Source of the DNA: a virus
UHGV virus genome: UHGV-0096675
Strand: one strand, 5' to 3'
DNA length: 10,445 nt
Below the pieces are notes generated by a model. The model worked only from the letters and a program-made list of their open reading frames with translations, did no database searches and had not been told where the DNA came from. Positions 846-10,395 of this stretch are shown one piece after another (position 1 is the first letter of the stretch; each line of letters begins with the position of its first letter). The translations under genes and the position numbers were made by a program.

Positions 846-1142
846 TCAGGAGCGCGATTGCGTTCCAGCCAGGGGAGGTTCGGCGGTATACCCCTGTAAA
901 GCCCTGCCCTGATTTCTCACAAACAGGCGAAGCCTTGTGTTTGCTTCATGCCTTGCCCGGTTCTCCTTGCGGTACGAAACGGGTTCGGCCTCGAACGTCT
1001 CCTGATACACAGCTGCATAACGCTGGATAGCTTTTTGTCGTGCAGTTGGTGTCAGGCTAAGTAACTGCTGCTTAATCCACTCGGCATCCGCTTGGCTAAA
1101 ATCGGAAGGTAAGATGCTGAGTAACTCAGGCGCTGGTTTCAT
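846..1142 (-). CDS. Hypothetical protein in the cII position (possible lysis-lysogeny regulator), function unknown
   Basis: ORF track minus ORF 846..1178; the track start at 1178 is a TTG, and the first ATG is at 1142 (MKPAPELLSILPSDF...). It overlaps the 3' end of cro by 17 nt and lies immediately downstream of cro as cII does in lambda. No motif recognised with certainty. Confidence 0.55.
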   Translation of the reverse strand: MKPAPELLSILPSDFSQADAEWIKQQLLSLTPTARQKAIQRYAAVYQETFEAEPVSYRKENRARHEANTRLRLFVRNQGRALQGYTAEPPLAGTQSRS

Positions 1143-1332
1143 CGCTTCGCCGCTTAGATGGGAATGCTTTGTTTTCAAAAGCTGAAACAGTCCCTTCCTC
1201 AGAAATCACAACAAAGATTTCCCGACCGGCTCTTAATGCTTTGCTTATGGCAATTTGCGTTACTCCGAGCGCTGCGCCAGCTCTTACCTGGCCGTGCTCT
1301 TTCACGTATTCCTTAAGAGTAATCTGGTTCAT
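1126..1332 (-). CDS. cro: Cro repressor (lambda Cro family)
   Basis: 68-aa product MNQITLKEYVKEHGQVRAGAALGVTQIAISKALRAGREIFVVISEEGTVSAFENKAFPSKRR... aligns by eye along its whole length with lambda Cro ([66 protein letters not shown]). RBS GAGGA lies 5 nt upstream of the ATG on the minus strand. It is divergent from cI. Confidence 0.9.
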   Translation of the reverse strand: MNQITLKEYVKEHGQVRAGAALGVTQIAISKALRAGREIFVVISEEGTVSAFENKAFPSKRRSDETSA

Positions 1333-1424
1333 ACGTCCTCTACGATTAAATACTACTAAAAGTATTAAAATGAAGGGTACTATAGGTAGGAGACATAATC
1401 AAACTTTTGGTATTAAATCAGCCC
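1333..1424. promoter_or_regulatory. OR-like divergent promoter/operator region with three 11-bp dyad sites (TACT-N3-AGTA) at 24-bp spacing
   Basis: Sites at 1354-1364 TACTAAAAGTA (perfect dyad), 1378-1388 TACTATAGGTA (1 mismatch) and 1402-1412 AACTTTTGGTA (2 mismatches), with starts exactly 24 bp apart. -10-like TATTAA at 1411-1416 sits just upstream of the cI ATG, suggesting a leaderless or short-leader PRM-like start. Confidence 0.6.
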
Positions 1425-2126
1425 ATGGAAAAGAAAAGCAGATTGACCACAGAGCAGCTTCAAGACGCAACGCGTCTAAAAGCTTTGTATGACTCGAAGA
1501 AAAAGGAGTTAGGGATCACGCAGGCTGATATGGCTGACGAACTGGACATATCTCAAGGTGCGGTCGGTCACTACCTGAATGGGCGAAACCCACTGAATCT
1601 TCCAGTTGCAGCAAAGTTTGCGAAACTGCTTCATGAGCCGATTTCGAGTTTCAGCCCCGCTCTTGCTAAAGAAGCTGAGCTGTTATCTCAGGTATCAAAC
1701 GTTACTTATCATGGCCCGGCCAAGCCGCGAGGGACATACCCGCTTATTAGCTGGGTAAGTGCTGGAGCATGGTGTGAGGCTATAGAACCGTACACACTCA
1801 AAGACATTGATGAATGGTACGATTCCGATGCACACATTGAAGGTCAAGGGTTCTGGTTAAAAGTCCAGGGAGACTCAATGACTTCTCCTGTTGGTATGAG
1901 CATACCTGAAGGCATGTACGTTTTAGTCGACACCGGAAAAGAGCCAATCAATGGGAGTTTAGTTGTTGCCAAGCTTACCGACGCTAACGAAGCGACATTT
2001 AAAAAGCTTGTAATCGACGCTGGAAAAACTTACCTCAAGCCATTGAATCCTCAGTATCCTCTCATCCCAATCAACGGCAATTGCAGGATCATCGGTGTCG
2101 TTGTTCAAGCTATGATGTGGCTCTGA
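1425..2126 (+). CDS. cI: CI repressor (lambda CI family; N-terminal HTH plus C-terminal S24 LexA-like autopeptidase domain)
   Basis: ORF track 1407..2126 begins at a TTG; the ATG at 1425 gives MEKKSRLTTEQLQDATRLKALYDSKKKELGITQ..., matching the lambda CI N-terminus ([34 protein letters not shown]). Ala-Gly cleavage site (VSAGAW), catalytic Ser (QGDSMTSP) and Lys (TFKKL) are present, and the C-terminus ...PLNPQYPLIPIN... matches lambda ...PLNPQYPMIPCN.... Confidence 0.92.
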   Translation: MEKKSRLTTEQLQDATRLKALYDSKKKELGITQADMADELDISQGAVGHYLNGRNPLNLPVAAKFAKLLHEPISSFSPALAKEAELLSQVSNVTYHGPAKPRGTYPLISWVSAGAWCEAIEPYTLKDIDEWYDSDAHIEGQGFWLKVQGDSMTSPVGMSIPEGMYVLVDTGKEPINGSLVVAKLTDANEATFKKLVIDAGKTYLKPLNPQYPLIPINGNCRIIGVVVQAMMWL

Positions 2127-2144: not shown

Positions 2145-2176
2145 AAAGCCTGTCCTCTCGACAGGCTTTTTTTTAT
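2145..2176 (+). terminator. Rho-independent terminator downstream of cI
   Basis: Perfect 8-bp stem AGCCTGTC (2147-2154) / GACAGGCT (2160-2167) with a 5-nt loop, extendable by two A-T pairs, followed by a run of 8 T. Confidence 0.8.
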
Positions 2177-2218
2177 TTCTTTACATTTCAACAAGTAAGC
2201 ATTCAACCAACACAAAAC

Positions 2219-2260
2219 TATACTTTTAGTATTGCAGATACTAAAACATCTAGTATTATT
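2219..2260 (+). promoter_or_regulatory. PL-like early promoter with CI-type operator dyads
   Basis: Perfect dyad TACTTTTAGTA at 2221-2231 is the reverse complement of the OR site at 1354-1364. A second partial site AACATCTAGTA lies at 2245-2255, 24 bp downstream. -35 TTGCAG (2232-2237), 16-nt spacer, -10 TATTAT (2254-2259), so the operators flank and overlap the promoter. Confidence 0.55.
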
Positions 2261-2291
2261 CATTTCATCGGCAAATAACGGAGCTAGTGAG

Positions 2292-2612
2292 ATGACGACT
2301 AACCCTACAATCAAAAAATTATATCAGCTTGTTGATATACCAGATTTTCGCTACAGCAAAGATTGTTCAAGTATTGATTATGGAGATATTGCATCAGATT
2401 GCGATACTAAAACAGTGTCTATCTTTGAAGCTATAAACCATATTAGCTTAAACATTTTTTCCATTGCAGAAGATAAAGAAATCAGCAAAGAAAAGATATT
2501 AAACCTTTCCTGTATCATCGCTGACCTTACTGAAATTGGAATGGCGACCAATAAAATTGGTCAAGCAGCATCATACCTTTCCGGATTAAAGGATGGCAAT
2601 CATGGCTCATGA
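2292..2612 (+). CDS. Hypothetical small mildly acidic protein (106 aa), AT-rich early gene
   Basis: ATG at 2292 (the track start at 2232 is a TTG inside the promoter) with GGAG about 10 nt upstream. Product MTTNPTIKKLYQLVDIPDFRYSKDCSSIDYGD... has no recognised domain. Base composition is visibly much more AT-rich than the flanking prophage genes. Confidence 0.55.
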   Translation: MTTNPTIKKLYQLVDIPDFRYSKDCSSIDYGDIASDCDTKTVSIFEAINHISLNIFSIAEDKEISKEKILNLSCIIADLTEIGMATNKIGQAASYLSGLKDGNHGS

Positions 2613-2796
2613 ATTCTCGTTAGAACAAGCAAAAGAAAAAGCTCATCAGGCAGAAATAATCTGCCTAATGATGGAGGCATACCCAAATAAAATGGATGAT
2701 TCAGAAATCGAGGCAATAGCATCTTTATTAAGCAAGTTAACCGGGGATGTTTGTGCCTGGTTAATTGAAGAGCAAGCCATTAGATCCAACGCTTAG
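2602..2796 (+). CDS. Hypothetical small acidic protein (64 aa), AT-rich early gene
   Basis: ATG at 2602 with AAGGA 8 nt upstream (the track start at 2593 abuts the RBS). It overlaps the upstream gene's stop (2610-2612). Product MAHEFSLEQAKEKAHQAEIICLMMEAYPNKMDDSEIEAIASLL... is Glu/Asp-rich. Confidence 0.5.
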   Translation: MAHEFSLEQAKEKAHQAEIICLMMEAYPNKMDDSEIEAIASLLSKLTGDVCAWLIEEQAIRSNA

Positions 2797-2867
2797 TTTT
2801 TTTAGATTCCTAAATAAATAACAGCTTTATTGCTGAGGGGATTCCATACACTTTTTTAGGAAAAACC

Positions 2868-2966
2868 ATGATAAACATCAACGCCTTTAAGACTGCAAAG
2901 TTATTTTGTTCAGCCGGTTACTGGGATATCGCGAATTTATATCTTAGGAAAGCATACGGGAGATAA
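2868..2966 (+). CDS. Possible small ORF (32 aa), uncertain
   Basis: ATG at 2868 with AGGA 6 nt upstream; MININAFKTAKLFCSAGYWDIANLYLRKAYGR; stop TAA at 2964-2966, 3 nt before the next gene. Below the ORF-track length cutoff; supported only by RBS and context. Confidence 0.2.
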   Translation: MININAFKTAKLFCSAGYWDIANLYLRKAYGR

Positions 2967-2969
2967 ATC

Positions 2970-3194
2970 ATGTCAACACAAGATCGCCAAGACGTGCAAG
3001 GTGTGAATATTAAAGCTGAACAACTTAACTTCCTCATGCAAACAATTCACGCTCACCATAAGGATTTTGACTGCCATCAACTTGACGGCCTTTTAGGTCT
3101 GGCTTATGACCTTGCCGGGTCGGTATATAGCTGGACCGAGGAAGAGGAAAGGATCGTATTAGCAAATGAAGATGCACAACGAAAGGTGTATTAA
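2970..3194 (+). CDS. Hypothetical protein (74 aa)
   Basis: ATG at 2970 with GGGAG upstream. First gene of a tightly packed, translationally coupled chain. No recognised domain. Confidence 0.6.
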   Translation: MSTQDRQDVQGVNIKAEQLNFLMQTIHAHHKDFDCHQLDGLLGLAYDLAGSVYSWTEEEERIVLANEDAQRKVY

Positions 3195-3560
3195 ATGGAT
3201 AATTTAATCACTACGTATCGCCGACGAATTTTAAAGGCTGCGTTATTACGCCACCAGCGTAAAACCGGAAGCACCTGCATCATTATTAATATGCCTAAAG
3301 AGGGGATAAACACTGTCGAATTAACAGAAATACTGCTTGATGGTCTGTTGAGACGATTCGAAAAGTTGGCTCTCAGTGAATACGGGAATATTGACGGCGT
3401 AAAAGCCATCAGAGGAATTTACAGCAACGCCGTAGATGTGAATGGCAGCGGTGAGTTCCTGACAGAAAGCGGAAAGGCATTAATCGACGATCTCATTGCT
3501 GAGCTGGTCGAGTTCGCCAAGAAACAAAAATCAGTCACAGCGGAGACAAGCCATGAGTGA
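3195..3560 (+). CDS. Hypothetical protein (121 aa)
   Basis: ATG at 3195 immediately follows the upstream stop TAA (3192-3194); AAAGG RBS upstream. No recognised domain. Confidence 0.6.
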   Translation: MDNLITTYRRRILKAALLRHQRKTGSTCIIINMPKEGINTVELTEILLDGLLRRFEKLALSEYGNIDGVKAIRGIYSNAVDVNGSGEFLTESGKALIDDLIAELVEFAKKQKSVTAETSHE

Positions 3561-3765
3561 TCAGACACCAATTATCACGCACGAACCAGTAAATATCGTG
3601 CTGACAATCGAGAACGGGAAGGTTATCCACACGCGGCCGGTACATAACGGCGAGGTTACTGCATCGCTGGAGACGTTTTTATGGATGGCTGAACAAGCCG
3701 GTTACACGATCACCCCACCTGCAGGAGAGAAGGACAATGGCCCTGACAGCGATACGAATTCCTGA
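3553..3765 (+). CDS. Hypothetical protein (70 aa)
   Basis: ATG at 3553 (the track start at 3496 is a TTG) overlaps the upstream stop (ATGAGTGA) with GGAG 7 nt upstream. MSDQTPIITHEPVNIVLTIENGKVIHTRPVHNGEV.... Confidence 0.5.
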   Translation: MSDQTPIITHEPVNIVLTIENGKVIHTRPVHNGEVTASLETFLWMAEQAGYTITPPAGEKDNGPDSDTNS

Positions 3766-3955
3766 GTGGGTGCACCTGCAGGCGGTCCATGTCCTCCGCC
3801 AGTTCAGAGCCAAGCGTATTCATCCCTGCCGTATGCACGGCTCCGGAAACCTGAGCCTGAGGGTTAATCGCCGCTGGCGGCTGCTGTCCCGAGACGGTGG
3901 CCAGAACTGGGAAGTAATGAGCCATGAACGATACAGCAAACTGAAGGACAGATAA
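3737..3955 (+). CDS. Hypothetical basic Arg/Trp-rich protein (72 aa); weak resemblance to RelE/HigB-type toxin C-terminal region (speculative)
   Basis: ATG at 3737 preceded by GGAGAGAAGGA; codon third positions are GC-rich as in neighbouring genes. ...IHPCRMHGSGNLSLRVNRRWRLLSRDGGQNWEVMSHERY resembles, by eye only, the conserved C-terminal region of HigB-like toxins. Confidence 0.45.
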   Translation: MALTAIRIPEWVHLQAVHVLRQFRAKRIHPCRMHGSGNLSLRVNRRWRLLSRDGGQNWEVMSHERYSKLKDR

Positions 3956-4050
3956 TGAAAGCATTCTTCCTTTCTCTGCTGTTTGGCCTGTTGCTGGTGT
4001 CCGTCGTGTTCGGCGCGCTGATTGAGTACAAATTTTTGATGAATTTCTGA
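3955..4050 (+). CDS. Small hydrophobic single-pass membrane peptide (31 aa)
   Basis: ATG at 3955 overlaps the upstream stop (TAATG) with AAGGA 7 nt upstream. MKAFFLSLLFGLLLVSVVFGALIEYKFLMNF is about 21 consecutive hydrophobic residues followed by a short charged tail. Its stop overlaps the next start (TGATG). Below the ORF-track length cutoff. Confidence 0.4.
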   Translation: MKAFFLSLLFGLLLVSVVFGALIEYKFLMNF

Positions 4051-4484
4051 TGGTGTTCAAGATGGCAAAAGATTTTTTCGACGTGGCGAGAGTACCCGCG
4101 GATCGCGTTGCAGCGAGGGTAATCAGTAAGGGCATTGATTGGCAGCCAAACAAAAAACGCGAGCAGGGGGATAGCGAAACACCACTCCCTACTCTTGATA
4201 TAAATCAAATGGACCGAACGCAGCGGGAACAGTTTGATTTATTCCAAGGGAGAACTTTCGGGCGAATGACCGTAATTGGGATCGCCGCTATCAAACAAGG
4301 CGACAGTATGCGTTACGTGGTTCGTTGCGCCTGCGGTACATACACATATCGGAGAGCAAAGGCGATTAAAAATCCGAAGAACAACATGGATTGCTGTGAT
4401 TACTGTAGACATCTGCTGCATTTGAAAAGGAATGAAATCCATCGCCGAACAGGTAAAAACCTCAAGTGGGAGGATTTGCCGTGA
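4050..4484 (+). CDS. Hypothetical protein with putative Cys-cluster zinc ribbon (144 aa)
   Basis: ATG at 4050, coupled to the upstream peptide gene. C-terminal cysteine cluster ...RCACGTYTYRRAKAIKNPKNNMDCCDYCRH... (CxC...CCxxC). An alternative start is ATG 4062. Confidence 0.5.
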   Translation: MVFKMAKDFFDVARVPADRVAARVISKGIDWQPNKKREQGDSETPLPTLDINQMDRTQREQFDLFQGRTFGRMTVIGIAAIKQGDSMRYVVRCACGTYTYRRAKAIKNPKNNMDCCDYCRHLLHLKRNEIHRRTGKNLKWEDLP

Positions 4485-4789
4485 CTAAACACCAAGACAT
4501 TATTAATCGCTGGACCCGTTTAGCGGTGGAGGCCAAAGAGCTGGGGCTCGCCACCATTCCCATCGACCCGGAAAAAATGTTGATGGTACTGGGGGAGCTG
4601 CCGTCCAGTTCGGCGGAAAAGTCCGCCGATTGCCAGAATGACTATCAGGCTGCGATCGACATCTTGCGCGACAGAGCTGCTCGCGAACTAGATGGTGGTT
4701 TTCGCGCTCATCACAACGCCCTGATTTATGCCGCTAATGAACTGGAAAATGCCCAGGCTTTCGGGCAGGAGGTCAGCCATGAGTCTTGA
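4481..4789 (+). CDS. Hypothetical protein (102 aa)
   Basis: GTG at 4481 with strong RBS GGGAGGA 7 nt upstream, overlapping the upstream stop (GTGA). The ORF-track start at 4466 is another in-frame GTG without an RBS. Confidence 0.5.
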   Translation: MTKHQDIINRWTRLAVEAKELGLATIPIDPEKMLMVLGELPSSSAEKSADCQNDYQAAIDILRDRAARELDGGFRAHHNALIYAANELENAQAFGQEVSHES

Positions 4790-4988
4790 CTGTGTACCCC
4801 TTTCTACGTACTGCAGGGACGCGGGGGAAACGGTAGAAGCCGTTAACAAACGGATACAAAGGGGGTTATGGAAGGAGGGAGTACATGTATTAAAAGTCGA
4901 TGGCGTTAAAGAACGCTGGATTGACTTAACGGAGGTTTCGAAGTGGGCAAGAAAGAACAAGGATCATTATCTCTCCCAAGAGGAATAA
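4779..4988 (+). CDS. xis: Excisionase (Xis-like, recombination directionality factor)
   Basis: ATG at 4779 with GGAGG 8 nt upstream. The 69-aa product MSLDCVPLSTYCRDAGETVEAVNKRIQRGLWKEGVHVLKVDGVKERWIDLTEVSKWARKNK... is a small basic protein directly upstream of int and overlapping it by 46 nt, as xis does in lambdoid phages. Confidence 0.65.
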   Translation: MSLDCVPLSTYCRDAGETVEAVNKRIQRGLWKEGVHVLKVDGVKERWIDLTEVSKWARKNKDHYLSQEE

Positions 4989-6115
4989 CCATCCGCCAGC
5001 ATAAAACTGGCGACACTCTGGTTATCACTTTCACATACAAAGGGGTTCTGTGCCGGGAGCCCCTCTCCAAAATGGAAGCAAACGCGCGCGGTGTGAAGTA
5101 CGCCGAGCGCCTGCTCGGGGAGATACAAAACCAGATCGTCAGTGGCACCTTTGAATATGCGAAATATTTCCCCAACTCCAAAAAACTGGAGCTTTTCGGG
5201 GGGGTGAAGAAAACCAAAAACATAAAGTCTTACCTGGACGAGTACCTGAAAATCTGCCAGAACCGCAACCTGTCCCCGTCGACTATCAACGGTTATGAAA
5301 AATGCCTGTCGGCGCTGTCAGCCCTGCATAAACTCCACGTGTCAGAACTGACGCCAGCGGTCCTTAAAAACTGGATAGCCAGCCGGAAAACAAAGCTGAA
5401 AACGACCAGGAATAACCTTTCGTTTCTGCGCAGCGCCATCGATGAAGCTGTTACGGATGGCCTGCTGACCATTAACCCGGTAACCCTCGTCAGCGCCAGC
5501 CGGTACCACGTGATCGACAGCAGCCCGAGCGCCGACGATTACGAGGTTGACCCGTTCACGCCAGCGGAAACCCTCGCCATTTACCAGAGCTGCAGGTACC
5601 CGGAATGGGAAAACCTGTTCCGCTTTGCTTTCAATACCGGTCTGCGGAGCTCCGAACTGTGCGCGCTGCGCTGGCCTGATCTCGACACCATCGCGAACAC
5701 AGCCCACGTTCAGGCGGCCAGTGTCGTAGGGGTACTTAAAGGCACCAAGACAAAAGCCGGTACCCGTAAGGTGGAGCTGAACAGTGAGGCGCTGGCGGCC
5801 CTGCAGGCGCAGAAGCAATACACCTTTATGAAAAGTGAGTTCATATTCAGCGACCCGAAAACGGGAGAACCCTGGGCGAACGCCGACGCTATCCGTAAAA
5901 AAGCATGGGTGCCGACCCTGAAAAAAGCTGGCGTGCGCTATCGTAACCCGTACCAGACGCGGCACACATTCGCCACCAAGCATATTAGCCAGGGCGTTAA
6001 CCTCTTCTGGCTTGCCGGACAGATGGGCCACAAAGGACCGGAAATGATATTCCGCAACTACGGTAAATACCTGGCTGAATATGACGGTAAAACCGCGATT
6101 TCAGCCGCGCTGTAG
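4943..6115 (+). CDS. int: Tyrosine integrase (lambda Int family) of the lambdoid prophage
   Basis: GTG start at 4943 with GGAGG 7 nt upstream; 390 aa. Carries the conserved tyrosine-recombinase catalytic region (...GLRSSELCALRW..., ...RHTFATKHISQG..., ...FRNYGKYLAEY...). Its 3' end points at the ssrA-type att core, the lambda-like arrangement. Confidence 0.92.
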   Translation: MGKKEQGSLSLPRGITIRQHKTGDTLVITFTYKGVLCREPLSKMEANARGVKYAERLLGEIQNQIVSGTFEYAKYFPNSKKLELFGGVKKTKNIKSYLDEYLKICQNRNLSPSTINGYEKCLSALSALHKLHVSELTPAVLKNWIASRKTKLKTTRNNLSFLRSAIDEAVTDGLLTINPVTLVSASRYHVIDSSPSADDYEVDPFTPAETLAIYQSCRYPEWENLFRFAFNTGLRSSELCALRWPDLDTIANTAHVQAASVVGVLKGTKTKAGTRKVELNSEALAALQAQKQYTFMKSEFIFSDPKTGEPWANADAIRKKAWVPTLKKAGVRYRNPYQTRHTFATKHISQGVNLFWLAGQMGHKGPEMIFRNYGKYLAEYDGKTAISAAL

Positions 6116-6440: not shown

Positions 6441-7670
6441 ATGGCCAAAATCGCTAAGAAGCTCACTGACACTGAAATCAAAAGCACCAAACCTGCCGAA
6501 AAAGAGGTTAACCTTTTTGACGGCGATGGTTTGCTGTTGCGAATCGCTCCCCTGGCGAAGGGAGGGAAGAAAAATTGGTATTTCAGATATGCAGTGCCTG
6601 TGACCAAAAAGCGAACTAAGGTGAGCTTAGGAACCTATCCTCACCTTACACTTGCGAAGGCACGAGCTTTACGTGATGAATACTTGTCGTTGCTTACAAA
6701 TGGTATAGACCCCCAAGTTCATAACAACCAAAAAGCCAATGCACTGAAAGATGCCACGGAACATACATTTCAAGCAGTAGCCAAGAAGTGGCTTGATGAG
6801 AAAGTCAAAACGTCAGGCATCTCCCAAGATCATGCTAACGACATCTGGCGAAGCCTAGAGAGAAATATCTTTTCCACATTGGGTGATACCCCAATTAAGG
6901 AGATTCGCCCTAAAATGCTTAAACAGCATTTAGAACCCATAGAAAAACGAGGTGTCCTTGAAACACTTCGCCGCATCATATCCCGCCTGAATGAAATTTT
7001 CCGCTATGCAGCAACAGAAGAACTCATAGAATTCAACCCGGCAGACAACCTGGGGCAACGGTTCAGCAAGCCAAAAAAACAGAATATGCCAGCATTACCC
7101 CCTTCCGAACTCCCTCGCTTCTTGGTTGCTCTAAACAATGCTTCTATCCGTTTGGAAACAAGGCTACTGATTGAGTGGCAACTTCTCACATGGGTTCGCC
7201 CAGGTGAAGCTGTTCGCACAAGATGGTCAGATATTGATATTGAAACTGGCATGTGGAACATCCCGGCGGAGTTTATGAAAATGAAGAAGCCTCACAAAGT
7301 TCCACTGAGCAAAGAAGCTTTGCGAGTTTTGGATTTAATGAAAGTCATCAGCGGGCATAGAGAGTGGGTGTTCCCCAGTATCAAAGCTCCACTCAATCAC
7401 ATGCATGAACAAACAGCTAATGCGGCCATAATCCGTATGGGTTTCGGAGGTGAGCTTGTAGCTCACGGTATGCGATCCATTGCTAGAACGGCTGCTGAGG
7501 AGTCTGGCAAGTTTAGGACTGATGTCTTAGAAGCCGCCCTTGCCCACTCGAAGAAAGATGAAATAATTGCAGCCTACAATCGTGCAGAGTATCTCACTGA
7601 ACGGGTGGTTCTCATGCAATGGTGGAGTGACTATGTTTCGTCTCAAAAATGCAAAGTTATTGCCGCATAA
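6441..7670 (+). CDS. intA: Tyrosine integrase, P4-like IntA family (CP4-57 IntA-like)
   Basis: ATG at 6441 with GAGGG 8 nt upstream. The product MAKIAKKLTDTEIKSTKPAEKEVNLFDGDGLLLRIA...DIWRSLERNIF...ALETLRRI...MWQLLT...HGMRSIARTA...LEAALAH...AYNRAEYL...MQWWSDYV aligns by eye, from memory, with E. coli CP4-57 IntA. The track start at GTG 6360 adds 27 residues not supported by that alignment. Confidence 0.9.
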   Translation: MAKIAKKLTDTEIKSTKPAEKEVNLFDGDGLLLRIAPLAKGGKKNWYFRYAVPVTKKRTKVSLGTYPHLTLAKARALRDEYLSLLTNGIDPQVHNNQKANALKDATEHTFQAVAKKWLDEKVKTSGISQDHANDIWRSLERNIFSTLGDTPIKEIRPKMLKQHLEPIEKRGVLETLRRIISRLNEIFRYAATEELIEFNPADNLGQRFSKPKKQNMPALPPSELPRFLVALNNASIRLETRLLIEWQLLTWVRPGEAVRTRWSDIDIETGMWNIPAEFMKMKKPHKVPLSKEALRVLDLMKVISGHREWVFPSIKAPLNHMHEQTANAAIIRMGFGGELVAHGMRSIARTAAEESGKFRTDVLEAALAHSKKDEIIAAYNRAEYLTERVVLMQWWSDYVSSQKCKVIAA

Positions 7671-7952: not shown

Positions 7953-9509
7953 ATGGCTAGCGAAAATGAAAAAAATCATAGAGTTAGGGTCGCGCAGTAC
8001 TTGAGGATGTCTACCGACCATCAGCAATATTCTTTACATAATCAGTCCGAATATATCAAAGATTATGCTGAAAAGAACAATATGGAAATCGCTTATACCT
8101 ACGATGATGCAGGTAAGAGCGGAGTCAGTATCGTAGGCAGGCATTCTTTGCAGCAGTTACTTAGCGATGTAGAACAAAAGAAAATAGATATACAGGCTGT
8201 ATTATTTTATGATGTGAGCCGTTTTGGTCGTTTTCAAAATAGTGATGAAGCGGCATATTATTCCTTTCTATTTGAGAGAAATGGTGTAGATCTTATATAT
8301 TGTTCCGAACCTATACCCACTAAAGATTTCCCTTTAGAGTCCTCTGTTATACTGAATATAAAAAGATCTAGTGCTGCATATCACAGCAGGAATCTATCTG
8401 AAAAGGTATTTATAGGGCAAGTAAATTTAATAAAGCTTGGTTATCATCAAGGCGGTATGGCTGGTTATGGGCTGAGACGTCTTTTAGTAGACGAAAATGG
8501 CATAGCTAAAGAAATATTGAGTTTCCGCAAAAGAAAGAGTATTCAAACAGATAGGGTAATATTAATTCCGGGACCAAAAAATGAAATAAAAATTGTAAAT
8601 AGAATATATGATCTCTTTATAGATAATAACGTCCCAGAATTCATTATTGCTGAGAGATTAAATGAACAGAACATACCTGCAGAAAATGGAACATTATGGA
8701 CTCGTGCAAAAATACATCAAATTTTGACAAATGAAAAATATATTGGAAACAACATATATAACAAAACCTCATCTAAATTAAAAAGTAGGCTTGTAAAAAA
8801 CCCCAAACATGAATGGGTTAGATGTGACAAGGCATATAAACCTATTATTTCAAAGAAAAAATACAATAAAGCTCAAGAAATAATTCAGCTCCGATCCATT
8901 CATTTGACTAATGAAGATCTATTAGAAAAACTAAAACAAAAATTAGAATCTAATGGAAAACTATCAGGCTTTATCATTGATGAAGATGATACAGGCCCTT
9001 CATCTTCTGTTTATAGAACCCGATTTGGTGGTCTTTTAAGAGCATATACTTTGATTGGTTATAAGCCAGAACATGATTACAGCTATCTCAAAATAAATGA
9101 AGCACTAAGATCATTTTACTCAGAGATAATTGAGGATTTTAAGGGTGAAATTTTAAAAAGTAACTGTCATATAGACGAGTATAAATATGCCCCAATGCTT
9201 TACATCAATGATGAGTTTTTAATTTCCGTCCTTGTTACTAAATGCATACATATGAAATCAGGTAAACTTAGATGGAAAGTCCGGTTTGATAACTCACAGA
9301 AAGCAGACATAACAATTGTTATACGAATGAATTCACAAAATATTTCACCTCTTGATTTTTATATCATACCAAAGATTGAAAACGAATATAATAAAATGTG
9401 CATGACGGAAACAAACAACATTCGATTAGATCTCTATAGATTTGATAATCTTGATAAACTTCTACAAATTATTACTCGCATGAAAGTGAGGGAACTATAT
9501 GCTGCCTGA
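7953..9509 (+). CDS. Large serine recombinase-like protein (resolvase/invertase N-terminal catalytic domain plus recombinase domain; no canonical zinc ribbon seen)
   Basis: ATG at 7953 with GAGG 8 nt upstream; 518 aa. N-terminus RVAQYLRMSTDHQQYSLHNQ fits the serine-recombinase catalytic motif (Y-x-R-x-S-T-x-x-Q), and ...IQAVLFYDVSRFGRF... fits the conserved D-x-S-R-x-x-R motif. GGMAGYGL resembles the start of the recombinase domain. No CxxC pairs are present. Confidence 0.85.
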   Translation: MASENEKNHRVRVAQYLRMSTDHQQYSLHNQSEYIKDYAEKNNMEIAYTYDDAGKSGVSIVGRHSLQQLLSDVEQKKIDIQAVLFYDVSRFGRFQNSDEAAYYSFLFERNGVDLIYCSEPIPTKDFPLESSVILNIKRSSAAYHSRNLSEKVFIGQVNLIKLGYHQGGMAGYGLRRLLVDENGIAKEILSFRKRKSIQTDRVILIPGPKNEIKIVNRIYDLFIDNNVPEFIIAERLNEQNIPAENGTLWTRAKIHQILTNEKYIGNNIYNKTSSKLKSRLVKNPKHEWVRCDKAYKPIISKKKYNKAQEIIQLRSIHLTNEDLLEKLKQKLESNGKLSGFIIDEDDTGPSSSVYRTRFGGLLRAYTLIGYKPEHDYSYLKINEALRSFYSEIIEDFKGEILKSNCHIDEYKYAPMLYINDEFLISVLVTKCIHMKSGKLRWKVRFDNSQKADITIVIRMNSQNISPLDFYIIPKIENEYNKMCMTETNNIRLDLYRFDNLDKLLQIITRMKVRELYAA

Positions 9510-10395
9510 AAAAAATGAATTCCCAATAATTCAAATTGAGATTGCAAAAATAAAATTTCTTAACCCACGAACAAGAAATAAGGTAGTGCATGAAGAAATA
9601 AAGGAAAGCATAAAAAAAAGAGGATTAAGCAAGCCTATAAGCGTAAGAGCTATTGATGAAGGCGATTTCAAATATGCTTTAATTTGTGGTCAAGGGAGAA
9701 TAGAGGCTCTCGTTGCATTAGGTGAAACTATTATTCCAGCAATTATAAGAGATGTATCAGAAGAAGATGCTTACGTTATGAGTTTAGTTGAAAACATTGC
9801 AAGGAGAAGACCACGTTCTAATGAGTTATTACAGGTGATTAAAGACATGAAAATCAGAGGACTTTCAGACTCCGAAATAAGTGAGATTACTGGATATTCA
9901 TCGAACTGGGTGAGCAGTATTAATATGCTACTTGATAAGGGAGAGCATAAACTTCTCTCAGCAGTCGAACGGGGTAATTTGCCTCTGTATCTCGCAGTGC
10001 AATTTGCAAGATGTGAAACTGAGGAAGCACAAGATATTCTTACCGAAGCATATGATAAAAAATTAATAAAAAGTCGGGACATTATAAAGATAAAACACAT
10101 TCTAAATCAAAGAACAGTTGGGAATAAAGGTGCAAAAGCAGCCGGATTTTATTATCACAAACCATCAAAAAGGATGACTTCAGAGGAGTTGATTGAGCTT
10201 TATGAAAATAGTATCGCTGAACATAAATCTGTTTATAACAACTCAAAATTCATAAAAACCAACCTACTAATAGTAAATGAGATTTTTAACATCATAATGA
10301 TGAATAAAAGCTTTCAACATATACTTGAACAAGAGAATCTTTCAGAACTACCATCTCAGATATTAACCCCAGTAAACAAAGAGGTATTAAAATGA
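9499..10395 (+). CDS. ParB/Srx-like N-terminal domain protein with HTH (divergent ParB box: GQGRIEAL instead of GERRxRA)
   Basis: ATG at 9499 overlaps the recombinase stop (ATGCTGCCTGA) with GAGGG 7 nt upstream; 298 aa. ...PISVRAIDEGDFKYALICGQGRIEALVALGETIIPAIIRDVSEEDAYVMSLVENIARR... matches ParB N-terminal domain architecture, followed by an HTH-like segment (LSDSEISEITGYSSNWVSSINMLL). The C-terminal 100 or so residues are uncharacterised. Confidence 0.8.
   Translation: MLPEKNEFPIIQIEIAKIKFLNPRTRNKVVHEEIKESIKKRGLSKPISVRAIDEGDFKYALICGQGRIEALVALGETIIPAIIRDVSEEDAYVMSLVENIARRRPRSNELLQVIKDMKIRGLSDSEISEITGYSSNWVSSINMLLDKGEHKLLSAVERGNLPLYLAVQFARCETEEAQDILTEAYDKKLIKSRDIIKIKHILNQRTVGNKGAKAAGFYYHKPSKRMTSEELIELYENSIAEHKSVYNNSKFIKTNLLIVNEIFNIIMMNKSFQHILEQENLSELPSQILTPVNKEVLK

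Follow-up and report, generated by a model that had tools for sequence, protein, structure and literature searches.

The viral genome UHGV-0096675 raises a question in a stretch of 10,445 nucleotides, referred to here as the window: whether a reading frame of only 31 codons, encoding a very hydrophobic peptide, is a gene at all, and if so, what its product might do. The frame lies exactly where the initial annotation had placed it (3955-4050, plus strand), starting with ATG at 3955-3957, ending with TGA at 4048-4050 and encoding the product MKAFFLSLLFGLLLVSVVFGALIEYKFLMNF. It is recognizable as a membrane micropeptide gene from the list of open reading frames, its homologues, a coding signature and a gene caller. 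The gene immediately upstream (3737-3955, plus strand) encodes a 72-residue ParE-like toxin-domain protein, identified by profile matches (PF24732, phrog_1525). Its stop codon, TAA at 3953-3955, shares one base with the ATG of the peptide in a TAATG junction (3953-3957, plus strand), and a Shine-Dalgarno-like GAAGGA (3943-3948, plus strand) lies within its 3' end, 6 nt before that ATG. Hence the ribosome binding site and upstream overlap from which translation had originally been argued are both present, and the start overlap is kept in relatives. The downstream gene (4050-4484, plus strand) encodes 140-144 residues with a profile match to phrog_18493 and a weak similarity to HNH endonucleases. 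The junction before it (4048-4064, plus strand) contains the stop of the peptide and two candidate downstream starts, ATG at 4050 and ATG at 4062. In the window, the A of TGA (4048-4050) is also the A of ATG (4050-4052), as the initial annotation noted when it described a TGATG overlap, but this second overlap is not conserved: ATA replaces the overlapping ATG in one related locus (L048), and a gap of 8-11 nt is usual. In L048, the only start available to the homologue of the downstream gene is the ATG equivalent to 4062 in the window. Because of this, and because the PHROG profile alignment of the 144-residue downstream frame begins at residue 7, the downstream gene may start 11 nt past the stop of the peptide.

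Comparative data bear directly on the first part of the question. A total of 104 homologues was found, comprising 62 distinct DNAs and 46 distinct peptides, and the homologous prophages reside in gut bacteria of the genera Escherichia, Citrobacter, Enterobacter, Trabulsiella and Pseudocitrobacter. All of them are open at 30-34 codons; conservation of the frame in related prophages, the lack of which the initial annotation had named as a refutation, was thus found in 104 of 104. Across 28 aligned codons, the frame of the peptide accumulated 44 synonymous and 54 non-synonymous distinct variants, when 25% synonymous would be expected (p = 2e-5), and the same variant test was not significant in any of the other five frames. 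Furthermore, the sense +1 and +2 frames always contained stops, and the antisense frames were open in only 33-39 of the 62 DNAs. In a set of members collected without reference to the C-terminus, codons 20-28 showed 11 synonymous against 2 non-synonymous distinct variants (p = 3e-6). Taken by themselves, the N-terminal 19 codons had a weak synonymous excess (p = 0.018) that was equalled by the +1 frame (p = 0.011), and pooled pN/pS did not separate the two frames. As these last two measures did not tell the frames apart, the coding case is built on the C-terminal codons of that independent set, on the comparison of all six frames and on the integrity of the frame, and the coding signal comes mainly from the C-terminal third, that integrity and the hydrophobicity of the product. 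With regard to the latter, the best 19-residue Kyte-Doolittle window of the peptide (2.71) is the highest among the 74 ATG-initiated open reading frames of at least 25 residues in all six frames of the window. The gene caller applied to the source contig did call the 31-residue frame. Conserved RNA structure was not detected at the gene (folding z-score 0.15), and Rfam, tRNA and tmRNA scans of the window gave no match, so that neither an att-site RNA gene nor any known RNA element is present there.

Judged on this comparative evidence, the 31-codon frame is a real gene and not a chance frame. The opposite view, that it opened by accident between genes or is a side effect of a gene encoded on the other strand, could appeal to RefSeq/PGAP, where the 100-nt stretch is without annotation in all five E. 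coli records inspected, and to the two long antisense reading frames that overlap the peptide gene in the window (3710-4153 and 3864-4208, minus strand). However, every one of the 104 copies is intact, the coding signature is confined to the frame of the peptide, the antisense frames are broken in 23-29 of the 62 distinct DNAs, and the gene caller that recognized the peptide in the source contig left the antisense frames uncalled. We regard this view as extremely improbable and, as far as sequence comparison can speak, already contradicted.

The annotation history of the gene is uneven. The initial annotation had described it as unannotated and as below the length cutoff of standard ORF calling. 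The first description is true of the RefSeq/PGAP records but not of GenBank, where relatives are entered as hypothetical proteins, nor of two deposited phages or the Entero67K catalogue; the second is only partly true, given the call made in the source contig. The phage entries, likewise hypothetical proteins, are CUW01254.1 (31 aa, MKSFLLSMLFSLLLASVVFGTLIEYKFLMNY) from the Stx2f-converting phage phi467 (LN997803.1), the reference Stx2f prophage (PMC11489412), and XNS37525.1 (31 aa, MMKLFIFSIIVSLLLAATVIGALIEYKFLVR) from Escherichia phage LMessi (PP925823.1). Like the copy in the window, both occupy the same place in a cI-to-int operon and overlap the upstream gene, but their upstream and downstream neighbours are different. 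These were the only two of 50,697 deposited phage records in which two blastn searches found a homologue; a tblastn search of the phage collection gave no match, but its low-complexity filter probably masks the peptide and diverged copies could be missed. A plasmid collection had no match to the gene. In Entero67K, cluster 'Citrobacter_76875', a row in Table S2 of 'The Cryptic Bacterial Microproteome' (Fesenko et al., 2024; PMC11188072), is the same family. Its representative, MKPFLLSMLFGLLLVAVVFGALIEYKFLMNY, is identical to variants recovered here and is listed there as an 'intergenic' smORF of RefSeq genome NZ_CP011132.1, and the RNAcode/EvolScore pipeline of that study classed the cluster as coding (PMC11188072). 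The row in question, one of 67,297 clusters, carries no prophage context, coupling, motif or function (PMC11188072). A full-text literature search for the motif ALIEYKFL found no paper, the motif being present in one supplementary table, and a literature search on phages LMessi and CharmingMan returned nothing relevant. Similarly, no significant match of the peptide to a characterised family was obtained in Pfam, NCBIfam, PADLOC or PHROGs, and a PDB sequence search was also empty; the only sub-threshold matches were to PsbX (16 bits against a cut-off of 25; Pfam, E up to 1) and phrog_15251 (E = 0.48). RefSeq drops a gene under demonstrable purifying selection that older GenBank annotations keep.

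The predicted product is dominated by a hydrophobic, putatively membrane-spanning segment at codons 4-23 (3964-4023, plus strand), recognized by hydropathy, codon pattern and AlphaFold2. Residues 5-23 have a Kyte-Doolittle value of 2.71 and a summed Hessa score of -3.07, the GRAVY of the whole peptide is 1.72, and the second codon positions in the segment are almost invariantly T. AlphaFold2 predicted one helix spanning residues 2-30 (pLDDT 97). Hydropathy and structure prediction thus agree with the original description of a single-pass hydrophobic peptide. There is a K on the N-terminal side of the segment and an E and a K on the C-terminal side, and from these charges the membrane topology cannot be called.

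Across the family, conservation is divided sharply along this helix. The members conform to the pattern M-K-x-F-(hydrophobic)15-G-A-L-I-E-Y-K-F-L-x-x, with 30-34 codons and approximately 17 hydrophobic residues before LIEYKFL, and the peptide of the window follows the pattern with LIEYKFL at residues 22-28. The hydrophobic N-terminal two-thirds is the variable part: residues 3-19 vary with an entropy of up to 2.6 bits, and residues 20-28 are invariant except for position 21 (A, with one S). These latter residues form a near-invariant juxtamembrane motif, GALIEYKFL (codons 20-28, 4012-4038, plus strand). Among members from viral contigs that had been ascertained by a pattern covering the transmembrane part only, LIEYKFL was intact in 49 of 50, and the third codon positions within the motif do vary (40% for E and 32% for Y). 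A helical-wheel test of residues 3-19 revealed no conserved face, 4028 of 5000 shuffles being at least as periodic, and hence nothing indicates a packing interface within the membrane. A phmmer search of 1.84 billion protein representatives (clustered at 50% identity) returned only three matches, all close relatives, and neither distant homologues nor larger proteins containing the motif. By these searches, the family is young and narrow, and part of the invariance of the tail could consequently reflect limited divergence. Two fusion or deletion variants, L074 and P0046, were also seen.

The genomic surroundings of the gene vary, with one constant feature. Its neighbours come from 5 unrelated gene families upstream and 9 downstream, which make up 14 different pairings, and in every locus inspected its start overlaps the stop of the upstream gene, mostly by 4 nt (ATGA) and in a few homologues by 1 nt. 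In every upstream context, a purine-rich stretch (GGAGG, AAGGA or GGGGTGA) lies at the same distance from the ATG. As this overlap of 1-4 nt is present in every relative, ribosomes would probably reach the peptide frame by coupling to the upstream gene. At the usual downstream junction, the Shine-Dalgarno sequence of the following gene contains the stop codon of the peptide, with a gap of 8-11 nt before the next start. BLAST homology between the window and other prophages ends at position 3959, at the start codon of the peptide. Of 105 loci, only 7 have the phrog_18493 gene as the next one downstream, and 74-81 have a homologue of xis or int at a distance of 0.1-2.1 kb beyond the peptide gene. 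The ParE-like gene directly precedes the peptide gene in only 19 of the 105, with a homologue within approximately 3 kb upstream in 85 of 105; a toxin-antitoxin pair formed by this neighbour and the peptide was rejected on the first of these counts. The frame might also serve only to relay ribosomes from the upstream to the downstream gene, its product being functionless or rapidly degraded, and both the start overlap found at all loci and the usual position of the stop, 8-11 nt ahead of the next start, are what a relay would have. However, a relay needs neither an amino-acid motif that is held invariant through synonymous changes (11 against 2) nor conserved hydrophobicity, and the sequence of the module is kept while both of its neighbours are swapped. 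We therefore consider a pure relay highly improbable.

The position of the gene in the window suggests when it might be expressed. A CI-type repressor with HTH and S24 peptidase domains (1407-2126, plus strand) and a divergent Cro (1126-1332, minus strand) were identified. Directly after cI there is a hairpin with a T-run that resembles an intrinsic terminator (2145-2169, plus strand; consensus scan), and beyond it a palindrome, TACTTTTAGTA (2221-2231), the putative CI operator at the early-left promoter. A second copy of this palindrome occurs between cro and cI (1354-1364), and chance alone would give the pattern 0.1 times. The same operon ends in an excisionase (4779-4988) and a tyrosine integrase (4943-6115; together 4779-6115, plus strand), giving the order cI, terminator, operator/promoter, about ten small genes, xis and int. 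The placement of the peptide in a phage early operon, proposed by the initial annotation, is supported by this arrangement. Promoter and terminator calls were made by consensus scans only. On the plus strand from 2600 to 6100 these found no promoter-like site, although a weak promoter could escape such a scan, and near the peptide gene they found none on either strand within approximately 1 kb. The gene lies approximately 1.7 kb downstream of the cI terminator and the operator-like palindrome and is probably part of an early-left operon under repressor control. As a member of that operon, behind the terminator and operator, it would probably be silent in a lysogen and transcribed after induction or infection.

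What, then, might the peptide do? Our best reading, to which we would give about an even chance of being correct, is that of a micropeptide which is anchored in the membrane and, once the prophage is induced, binds one particular envelope protein through its conserved juxtamembrane tail. The 31-residue protein would be essentially one alpha-helix, with a basic MK N-terminus, a hydrophobic span of approximately 20 residues and an 8-residue interfacial tail containing LIEYKFL. The span would anchor the peptide in the inner membrane and, because it has been free to drift within hydrophobic residues while the tail has remained unchanged, it may be an anchor only, with the tail making the sequence-specific contact. 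The partner of the tail, modulated during lytic development, would be an envelope protein conserved among enterobacteria or possibly a membrane protein of the phage itself. A specific post-induction interaction appears to fit the variable span, the invariant tail and the operon position better than would a toxin of generic action or expression in the lysogen. A precedent in architecture is SidA of Caulobacter crescentus, a 29-residue inner-membrane division inhibitor that binds FtsW (PMC4211646). It is similar in size and likewise has one hydrophobic helix and almost no soluble part, but it is encoded by a chromosomal SOS gene of an alphaproteobacterium and not by a phage. SidA is induced on inactivation of a LexA-type repressor and acts by binding a membrane protein specifically, not by damaging the membrane, and this is the working model we favour for the peptide. 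A positional precedent comes from lambda, where cIII targets the membrane protease FtsH. Lambda Kil targets FtsZ through ZipA (PMC3961180). Both proteins are small, are encoded between the immunity region and xis-int, as is the peptide, and are made only after derepression, each having one host-protein target; unlike the peptide, they are 47 (Kil) and 54 (cIII) residues long, soluble or amphipathic, and have no transmembrane segment. The peptide had no match to the Pfam families for Kil and cIII in a scan at E up to 1. By the same argument from conservation, the peptide might resemble host small membrane regulators of the KdpF, CydX, AcrZ, MgtS or SidA type, which bind a specific larger membrane protein and modulate it.

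Several other functions have to be weighed against an anchored tail with a specific partner, among them membrane depolarisation, host killing and superinfection exclusion, which the initial annotation had suggested. Type I toxins such as TisB, IbsC, ShoB, DinQ and Hok/Gef are single hydrophobic helices of 19-50 residues that act at the inner membrane, and a purely hydrophobic peptide like IbsC needs no specific partner to be toxic. The peptide, which is very short, extremely hydrophobic (GRAVY 1.72, Kyte-Doolittle 2.71) and predicted by AlphaFold2 to be a single helix, might similarly be a non-specific membrane-active toxin or host-killing peptide that inserts into the inner membrane on induction and dissipates the proton motive force, in the manner of TisB, IbsC, ShoB or Hok. 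Its operon is probably expressed only once the host is committed to lysis, and the variants L074 and P0046 suggest that the peptide is dispensable for carriage of the prophage, both of which would suit a toxin. However, whereas type I toxins come with a dedicated promoter, an antisense RNA antitoxin and recognizable families, this gene sits within an operon and is translationally coupled there. It has no significant match to Hok/Gef, Ldr, Ibs, TisB, ShoB or DinQ or to any other toxin family of Pfam, NCBIfam, PADLOC or PHROGs, the consensus scans placed no promoter-like site near it on either strand, and its RNA folding is not unusual in a way that might hint at an antisense antitoxin. Furthermore, its helix contains no charged or strongly polar residue before E24, a generic disruptor needs no invariant, sequence-specific tail beside a drifting hydrophobic core, and early depolarisation would be expected to starve phage replication. 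On balance, we consider a generic toxin unlikely. Nor is the location that of a holin or pinholin, which would lie in a late-transcribed lysis cassette beside an endolysin or spanin; the gene lies between cI and xis-int in the early-left operon, with no lysis gene in the window.

A role in the lysogen, as a superinfection-exclusion or defence peptide that keeps incoming phages from delivering their DNA or from using a receptor or transport protein, seems more doubtful still. Exclusion is a common role of small prophage membrane proteins, according to a review (PMC11436027), and the gene resembles accessory genes in being a mobile module found in many genomic contexts. Nevertheless, with neither a promoter-like site nor a terminator of its own in the consensus scans, it does not look like an autonomous transcription unit of the kind seen in prophage morons; its translation is in all cases linked to that of an early gene, and it has no PADLOC match. 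Moreover, as it lies approximately 1.7 kb behind the cI terminator and operator-like palindrome, in a tightly packed operon ending in xis-int, it should be repressed in the lysogen. A variable hydrophobic N-terminal part followed by an invariant C-terminal part is also the classic pattern of a precursor, and the N-terminal part could be a signal peptide cut after V18-F19-G20, releasing the 11-mer ALIEYKFLMNF to the periplasm or medium. Such a cut fits the signal-peptidase rule, with V, I, A or G at position -3 (V18 here) and an invariant G at -1. For the catalogued family member, the labels in Table S2 are divided, with Phobius calling a signal peptide, SignalP non-signal and TMHMM nonTM (PMC11188072). 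However, the hydrophobic stretch of approximately 17-20 residues is anchor-like, the region before the cut is hydrophobic, with no polar c-region or helix breaker, AlphaFold2 gave one uninterrupted helix, the freed 11-mer would itself be hydrophobic and no receptor-like gene travels with the peptide gene; we consider this precursor very unlikely. Equally slim is the chance that the invariant C-terminal part is the active entity, either as that exported 11-mer or as an anchored tail inhibiting one essential enterobacterial envelope machine (for example, the late divisome or FtsH). Of these two versions the exported peptide is the more novel, as it would mean that temperate phages of Gram-negative hosts make a periplasmic or extracellular peptide.

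As it stands, the result is a solid but ordinary one: a small hypothetical gene that is real and conserved. Membrane proteins consisting of a single short helix form a known class, most of which are uncharacterised, and to our knowledge there are few from phages with a defined target. If the tail of the peptide does bind a conserved envelope protein, this would provide a new tool of phage origin for probing or inhibiting that protein and would add a function to a poorly understood, accessory part of the early-left operon. The family is tractable, having 31 residues and a sharply bounded invariant motif to mutate, and it is present in the culturable phages LMessi and phi467 and in sequenced lysogens such as E. 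coli UMNK88 and MS 115-1.

The 31-codon reading frame at 3955-4050 (+) is a real gene. Its product, MKAFFLSLLFGLLLVSVVFGALIEYKFLMNF, is read from an ATG at 3955 to a TGA ending at 4050. The start shares one base with the stop of the upstream 72-codon ORF (3737-3955; TAA at 3953-3955), giving a TAATG junction, a Shine-Dalgarno-like GAAGGA (3943-3948, +) lies 6 nt 5' of it, and the A of the peptide's TGA is the first base of an ATG at 4050 (TGATG) that opens a 144-codon frame. On re-reading, the initial annotation had described the ORF accurately in its coordinates, Shine-Dalgarno sequence and overlaps, and the single hydrophobic helix it proposed is also predicted here: mean Kyte-Doolittle hydropathy over residues 5-23 (2.71) is the highest among the 74 ATG-ORFs of at least 25 aa in the six frames of the window, and the AlphaFold2 model is one unbroken helix over residues 2-30 (mean pLDDT 97). 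The peptide region showed no unusual RNA structure (folding z = 0.15) and no match in an Rfam scan.

The coding status of the gene is supported by comparison of its relatives. All 104 prophage homologues are open over 30-34 codons (62 distinct DNAs, 46 distinct peptides), and their lengths differ by whole codons at the C-terminus. Codon position 2 is T almost without exception through the hydrophobic stretch, and position 3 varies even within the tail motif LIEYKFL (GAG/GAA 40%, TAC/TAT 32%). Searching IMG/VR viral contigs with a degenerate DNA pattern for GALIEYKFL gave 90 matching stretches, and 88 of these lie within intact 30-34-codon family ORFs; the others were a chance match inside a 183-aa protein (locus L011) and a deletion fusion (locus L074). 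In species-representative genomes the same pattern gave 10 matches, all 10 to family members, in Citrobacter, Pseudocitrobacter, Enterobacter and Trabulsiella. As this survey had required the motif, we made a second with a pattern from the transmembrane part only. Of its 52 matching stretches in viral contigs, 50 belong to the family; 49 of these keep LIEYKFL unchanged, the exception being a Y-to-S singleton, and G-S-L replaces G-A-L in four copies. Over all collected loci this pattern returned 58 members, whose C-termini comprise 17 distinct DNAs; codons 20-28 of this set carry 11 synonymous versus 2 non-synonymous distinct variants (22% synonymous expected; p = 3e-6); across the same codons the other two sense frames contain stops and show no significant synonymous excess. 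When 28 aligned codons were compared in six frames, the excess appeared in the ORF frame only (p = 2e-5), and the antisense frames are broken in 23-29 of the 62 distinct DNAs. The N-terminal 19 codons alone, a part that tolerates many hydrophobic substitutions, do not separate the frames (ORF frame p = 0.018, +1 frame p = 0.011). Independently, Table S2 of Fesenko et al. (PMC11188072) lists a family member among the Entero67K smORF clusters that RNAcode or EvolScore classed as coding. Two long minus-strand ORFs (3710-4153, 147 aa; 3864-4208, 114 aa) cross the peptide gene and its neighbours, and are probably spurious because the gene caller left them out on the source contig (18.8 kb, from an ENA metagenome; the window makes up its first 10.4 kb) and because antisense frames are interrupted in many relatives.

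The initial annotation had the gene translationally coupled on both sides. Upstream, this holds: the peptide ATG overlaps the preceding stop in every locus despite five unrelated upstream families, mostly as ATGA and as a single base (TAATG/TGATG) in the window and a few others, with a purine-rich Shine-Dalgarno sequence 5-10 nt 5' of the start across the family. With nine downstream families, the flanks form 14 combinations. Homology of the window to many E. coli prophages stops at 3959, that is, at the peptide start codon, a break that places a mosaic recombination joint on the gene boundary. Nucleotide homology to phages AsXd-1, phi467, LMessi, CharmingMan and Fraca also breaks within a few bases of the start codon. 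Since the overlap is kept across exchanged neighbours and homology breaks at the start codon, the start/stop overlap is part of the module, and its conservation is good indirect evidence that the peptide is translated by coupling. Downstream, the claim was not borne out. Usually 8-11 nt separate the two genes and the stop codon falls within the next Shine-Dalgarno sequence (TGAGG); the TGATG overlap occurs only with the 144-aa neighbour, and one locus (L048) has ATA in place of the overlapping ATG, so that the conserved start of this neighbour is the position matching 4062. The start of the 140-144-aa downstream protein (phrog_18493; 4050-4484) is thus ambiguous, at 4050 or 4062; its C-terminal half is rich in cysteine (RCACG...CCDYCRH) and weakly resembles HNH endonuclease PHROGs. 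Two rearrangements were also seen: at L074 (6266-6352) a deletion has left a fusion in which 12 codons from the start of the 74-aa upstream gene run into the final 16 of the peptide (MKIQHQDYGAVA-AVVFGALIEYKFLIGF), and in one protein (P0046) the upstream product reads through into the entire peptide. From these, both genes seem dispensable for prophage carriage.

The early-operon position proposed for the gene is supported by its surroundings. Pfam and PHROG scans identified Cro (1126-1332, -), a CI-type repressor with HTH and S24 peptidase domains (1407-2126, +), a series of small + strand genes between cI and xis-int, an excisionase (4779-4988) and a tyrosine integrase (4943-6115). By consensus scan, a strong terminator-like hairpin (2145-2169) lies directly 3' of cI, with no promoter-like sites on the + strand over 2600-6100 and no terminator-like sites over 2170-5600; for this reason we read the peptide gene as an internal member of a lambda-pL-like operon, which these scans suggest should be off in the lysogen and on after induction. 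The palindrome TACT(W4)GTA (chance expectation 0.1 occurrences in the window) lies in the cro-cI intergenic region (1354-1364) and just past the cI terminator (2221-2231), and these copies are probably repressor operators, one per early promoter. A third copy at 10265-10275, within a ParB-like gene, is probably due to chance. Within 3553-3955, a 70-aa gene (phrog_340, weak anti-repressor-like matches) shares 29 nt with the start of the upstream 72-aa gene, whose product has a ParE-like toxin domain (PF24732) and has homologues encoded upstream of the peptide in 85 of 105 loci; the two could be a toxin-antitoxin-like pair within the early-left operon.

What the peptide does may be approached through its pattern of conservation. 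Entropy per residue reaches 2.6 bits (residue 3), lies between 0.2 and 1.7 bits over residues 4-19, and falls to zero at residue 20 and over 22-28, with 0.2 bits at residue 21 (A, one S). The two main subfamilies are unlike at most span positions (LLFGLLLVAVVF versus IIVSMLLAATVI) and identical in the tail, and no helical periodicity was found in the variable part. As read from the alignment, constraint runs as a gradient along the peptide and favours no single helix face. The hydrophobic span would then be a membrane anchor and the short juxtamembrane tail the functional element, a pattern that favours sequence-specific contact over generic membrane damage. The toxin or exclusion roles first suggested are somewhat disfavoured by this pattern together with the operon position. 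It is unlikely that the span is instead a signal-peptide-like leader releasing a conserved exported peptide: V18 and G20 satisfy the -3/-1 rule and Phobius labels a family member a signal peptide, but SignalP is negative for a family member (both in the entries of PMC11188072), the hydrophobic region is long, the AlphaFold2 helix is continuous and no partner gene co-occurs. Interest would be higher if the invariant tail binds an essential envelope protein or is exported.

Searches of Pfam, PHROGs, NCBIfam, PADLOC and PDB sequences gave no significant match to the peptide. A holin is ruled out by context, because the gene sits in an early operon, and its organisation is not that of a typical moron or exclusion gene, since it does not form a separate transcription unit; unlike type I toxins, the peptide has no family match, no nearby promoter-like site on either strand by consensus scan, and no structured RNA. 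Its nearest functional analogues, in mode of action and not membership, may be peptides aimed at one specific host protein. Lambda cIII targets FtsH. SidA, a 29-aa inner-membrane protein, stops division by binding FtsW (PMC4211646), and lambda Kil, from the early left operon, affects FtsZ through ZipA (PMC3961180). The family itself belongs with small phage membrane peptides, without a characterised family.

The gene had been described as unannotated, which is correct for RefSeq, where all five records opened leave a gap of about 100 nt exactly over a 31-33-codon homologue. However, it was called by the gene caller applied to the source contig, appears in the Entero67K row, and is deposited as a hypothetical protein in LMessi (XNS37525.1) and phi467 (CUW01254.1), the two of 50,697 deposited phages found to carry it. 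Family variants occur on hundreds of contigs by exact look-up, one named variant coming from Klebsiella aerogenes, and their NCBI/UniRef labels are only 'hypothetical' or 'uncharacterised protein'. Filter-free phmmer against 1.84 billion representatives gave three matches, all close relatives, one of which is fused to the upstream gene by read-through; a plasmid collection held no copy. The family is already deposited, as hypothetical proteins, and catalogued in bulk. By BLAST, the region is present in about 15-20 of 5,426 complete E. coli genomes, and the strain names of several matches suggest STEC. Phi467 is the reference Stx2f-converting prophage (PMC11489412), from an HUS-associated E. 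coli strain, and its homologue (L108, 5142-5237; LN997803.1, 28754-28849) carries GTLIEYKFL.

A second mobile element starts directly past the phage integrase (6116-10445; up to 14050 in locus L107). It encodes a P4-type integrase (6441-7670) and a large serine recombinase (7953-9509); it also has a pair of ParB/RepB-like genes, after which comes a type I restriction-modification methylase subunit. No tRNA or tmRNA genes were detected in the window. In E. coli relatives the phage adjoins intA or ypjA, in the vicinity of the CP4-57 island, and this points to tandem insertion at a single site.
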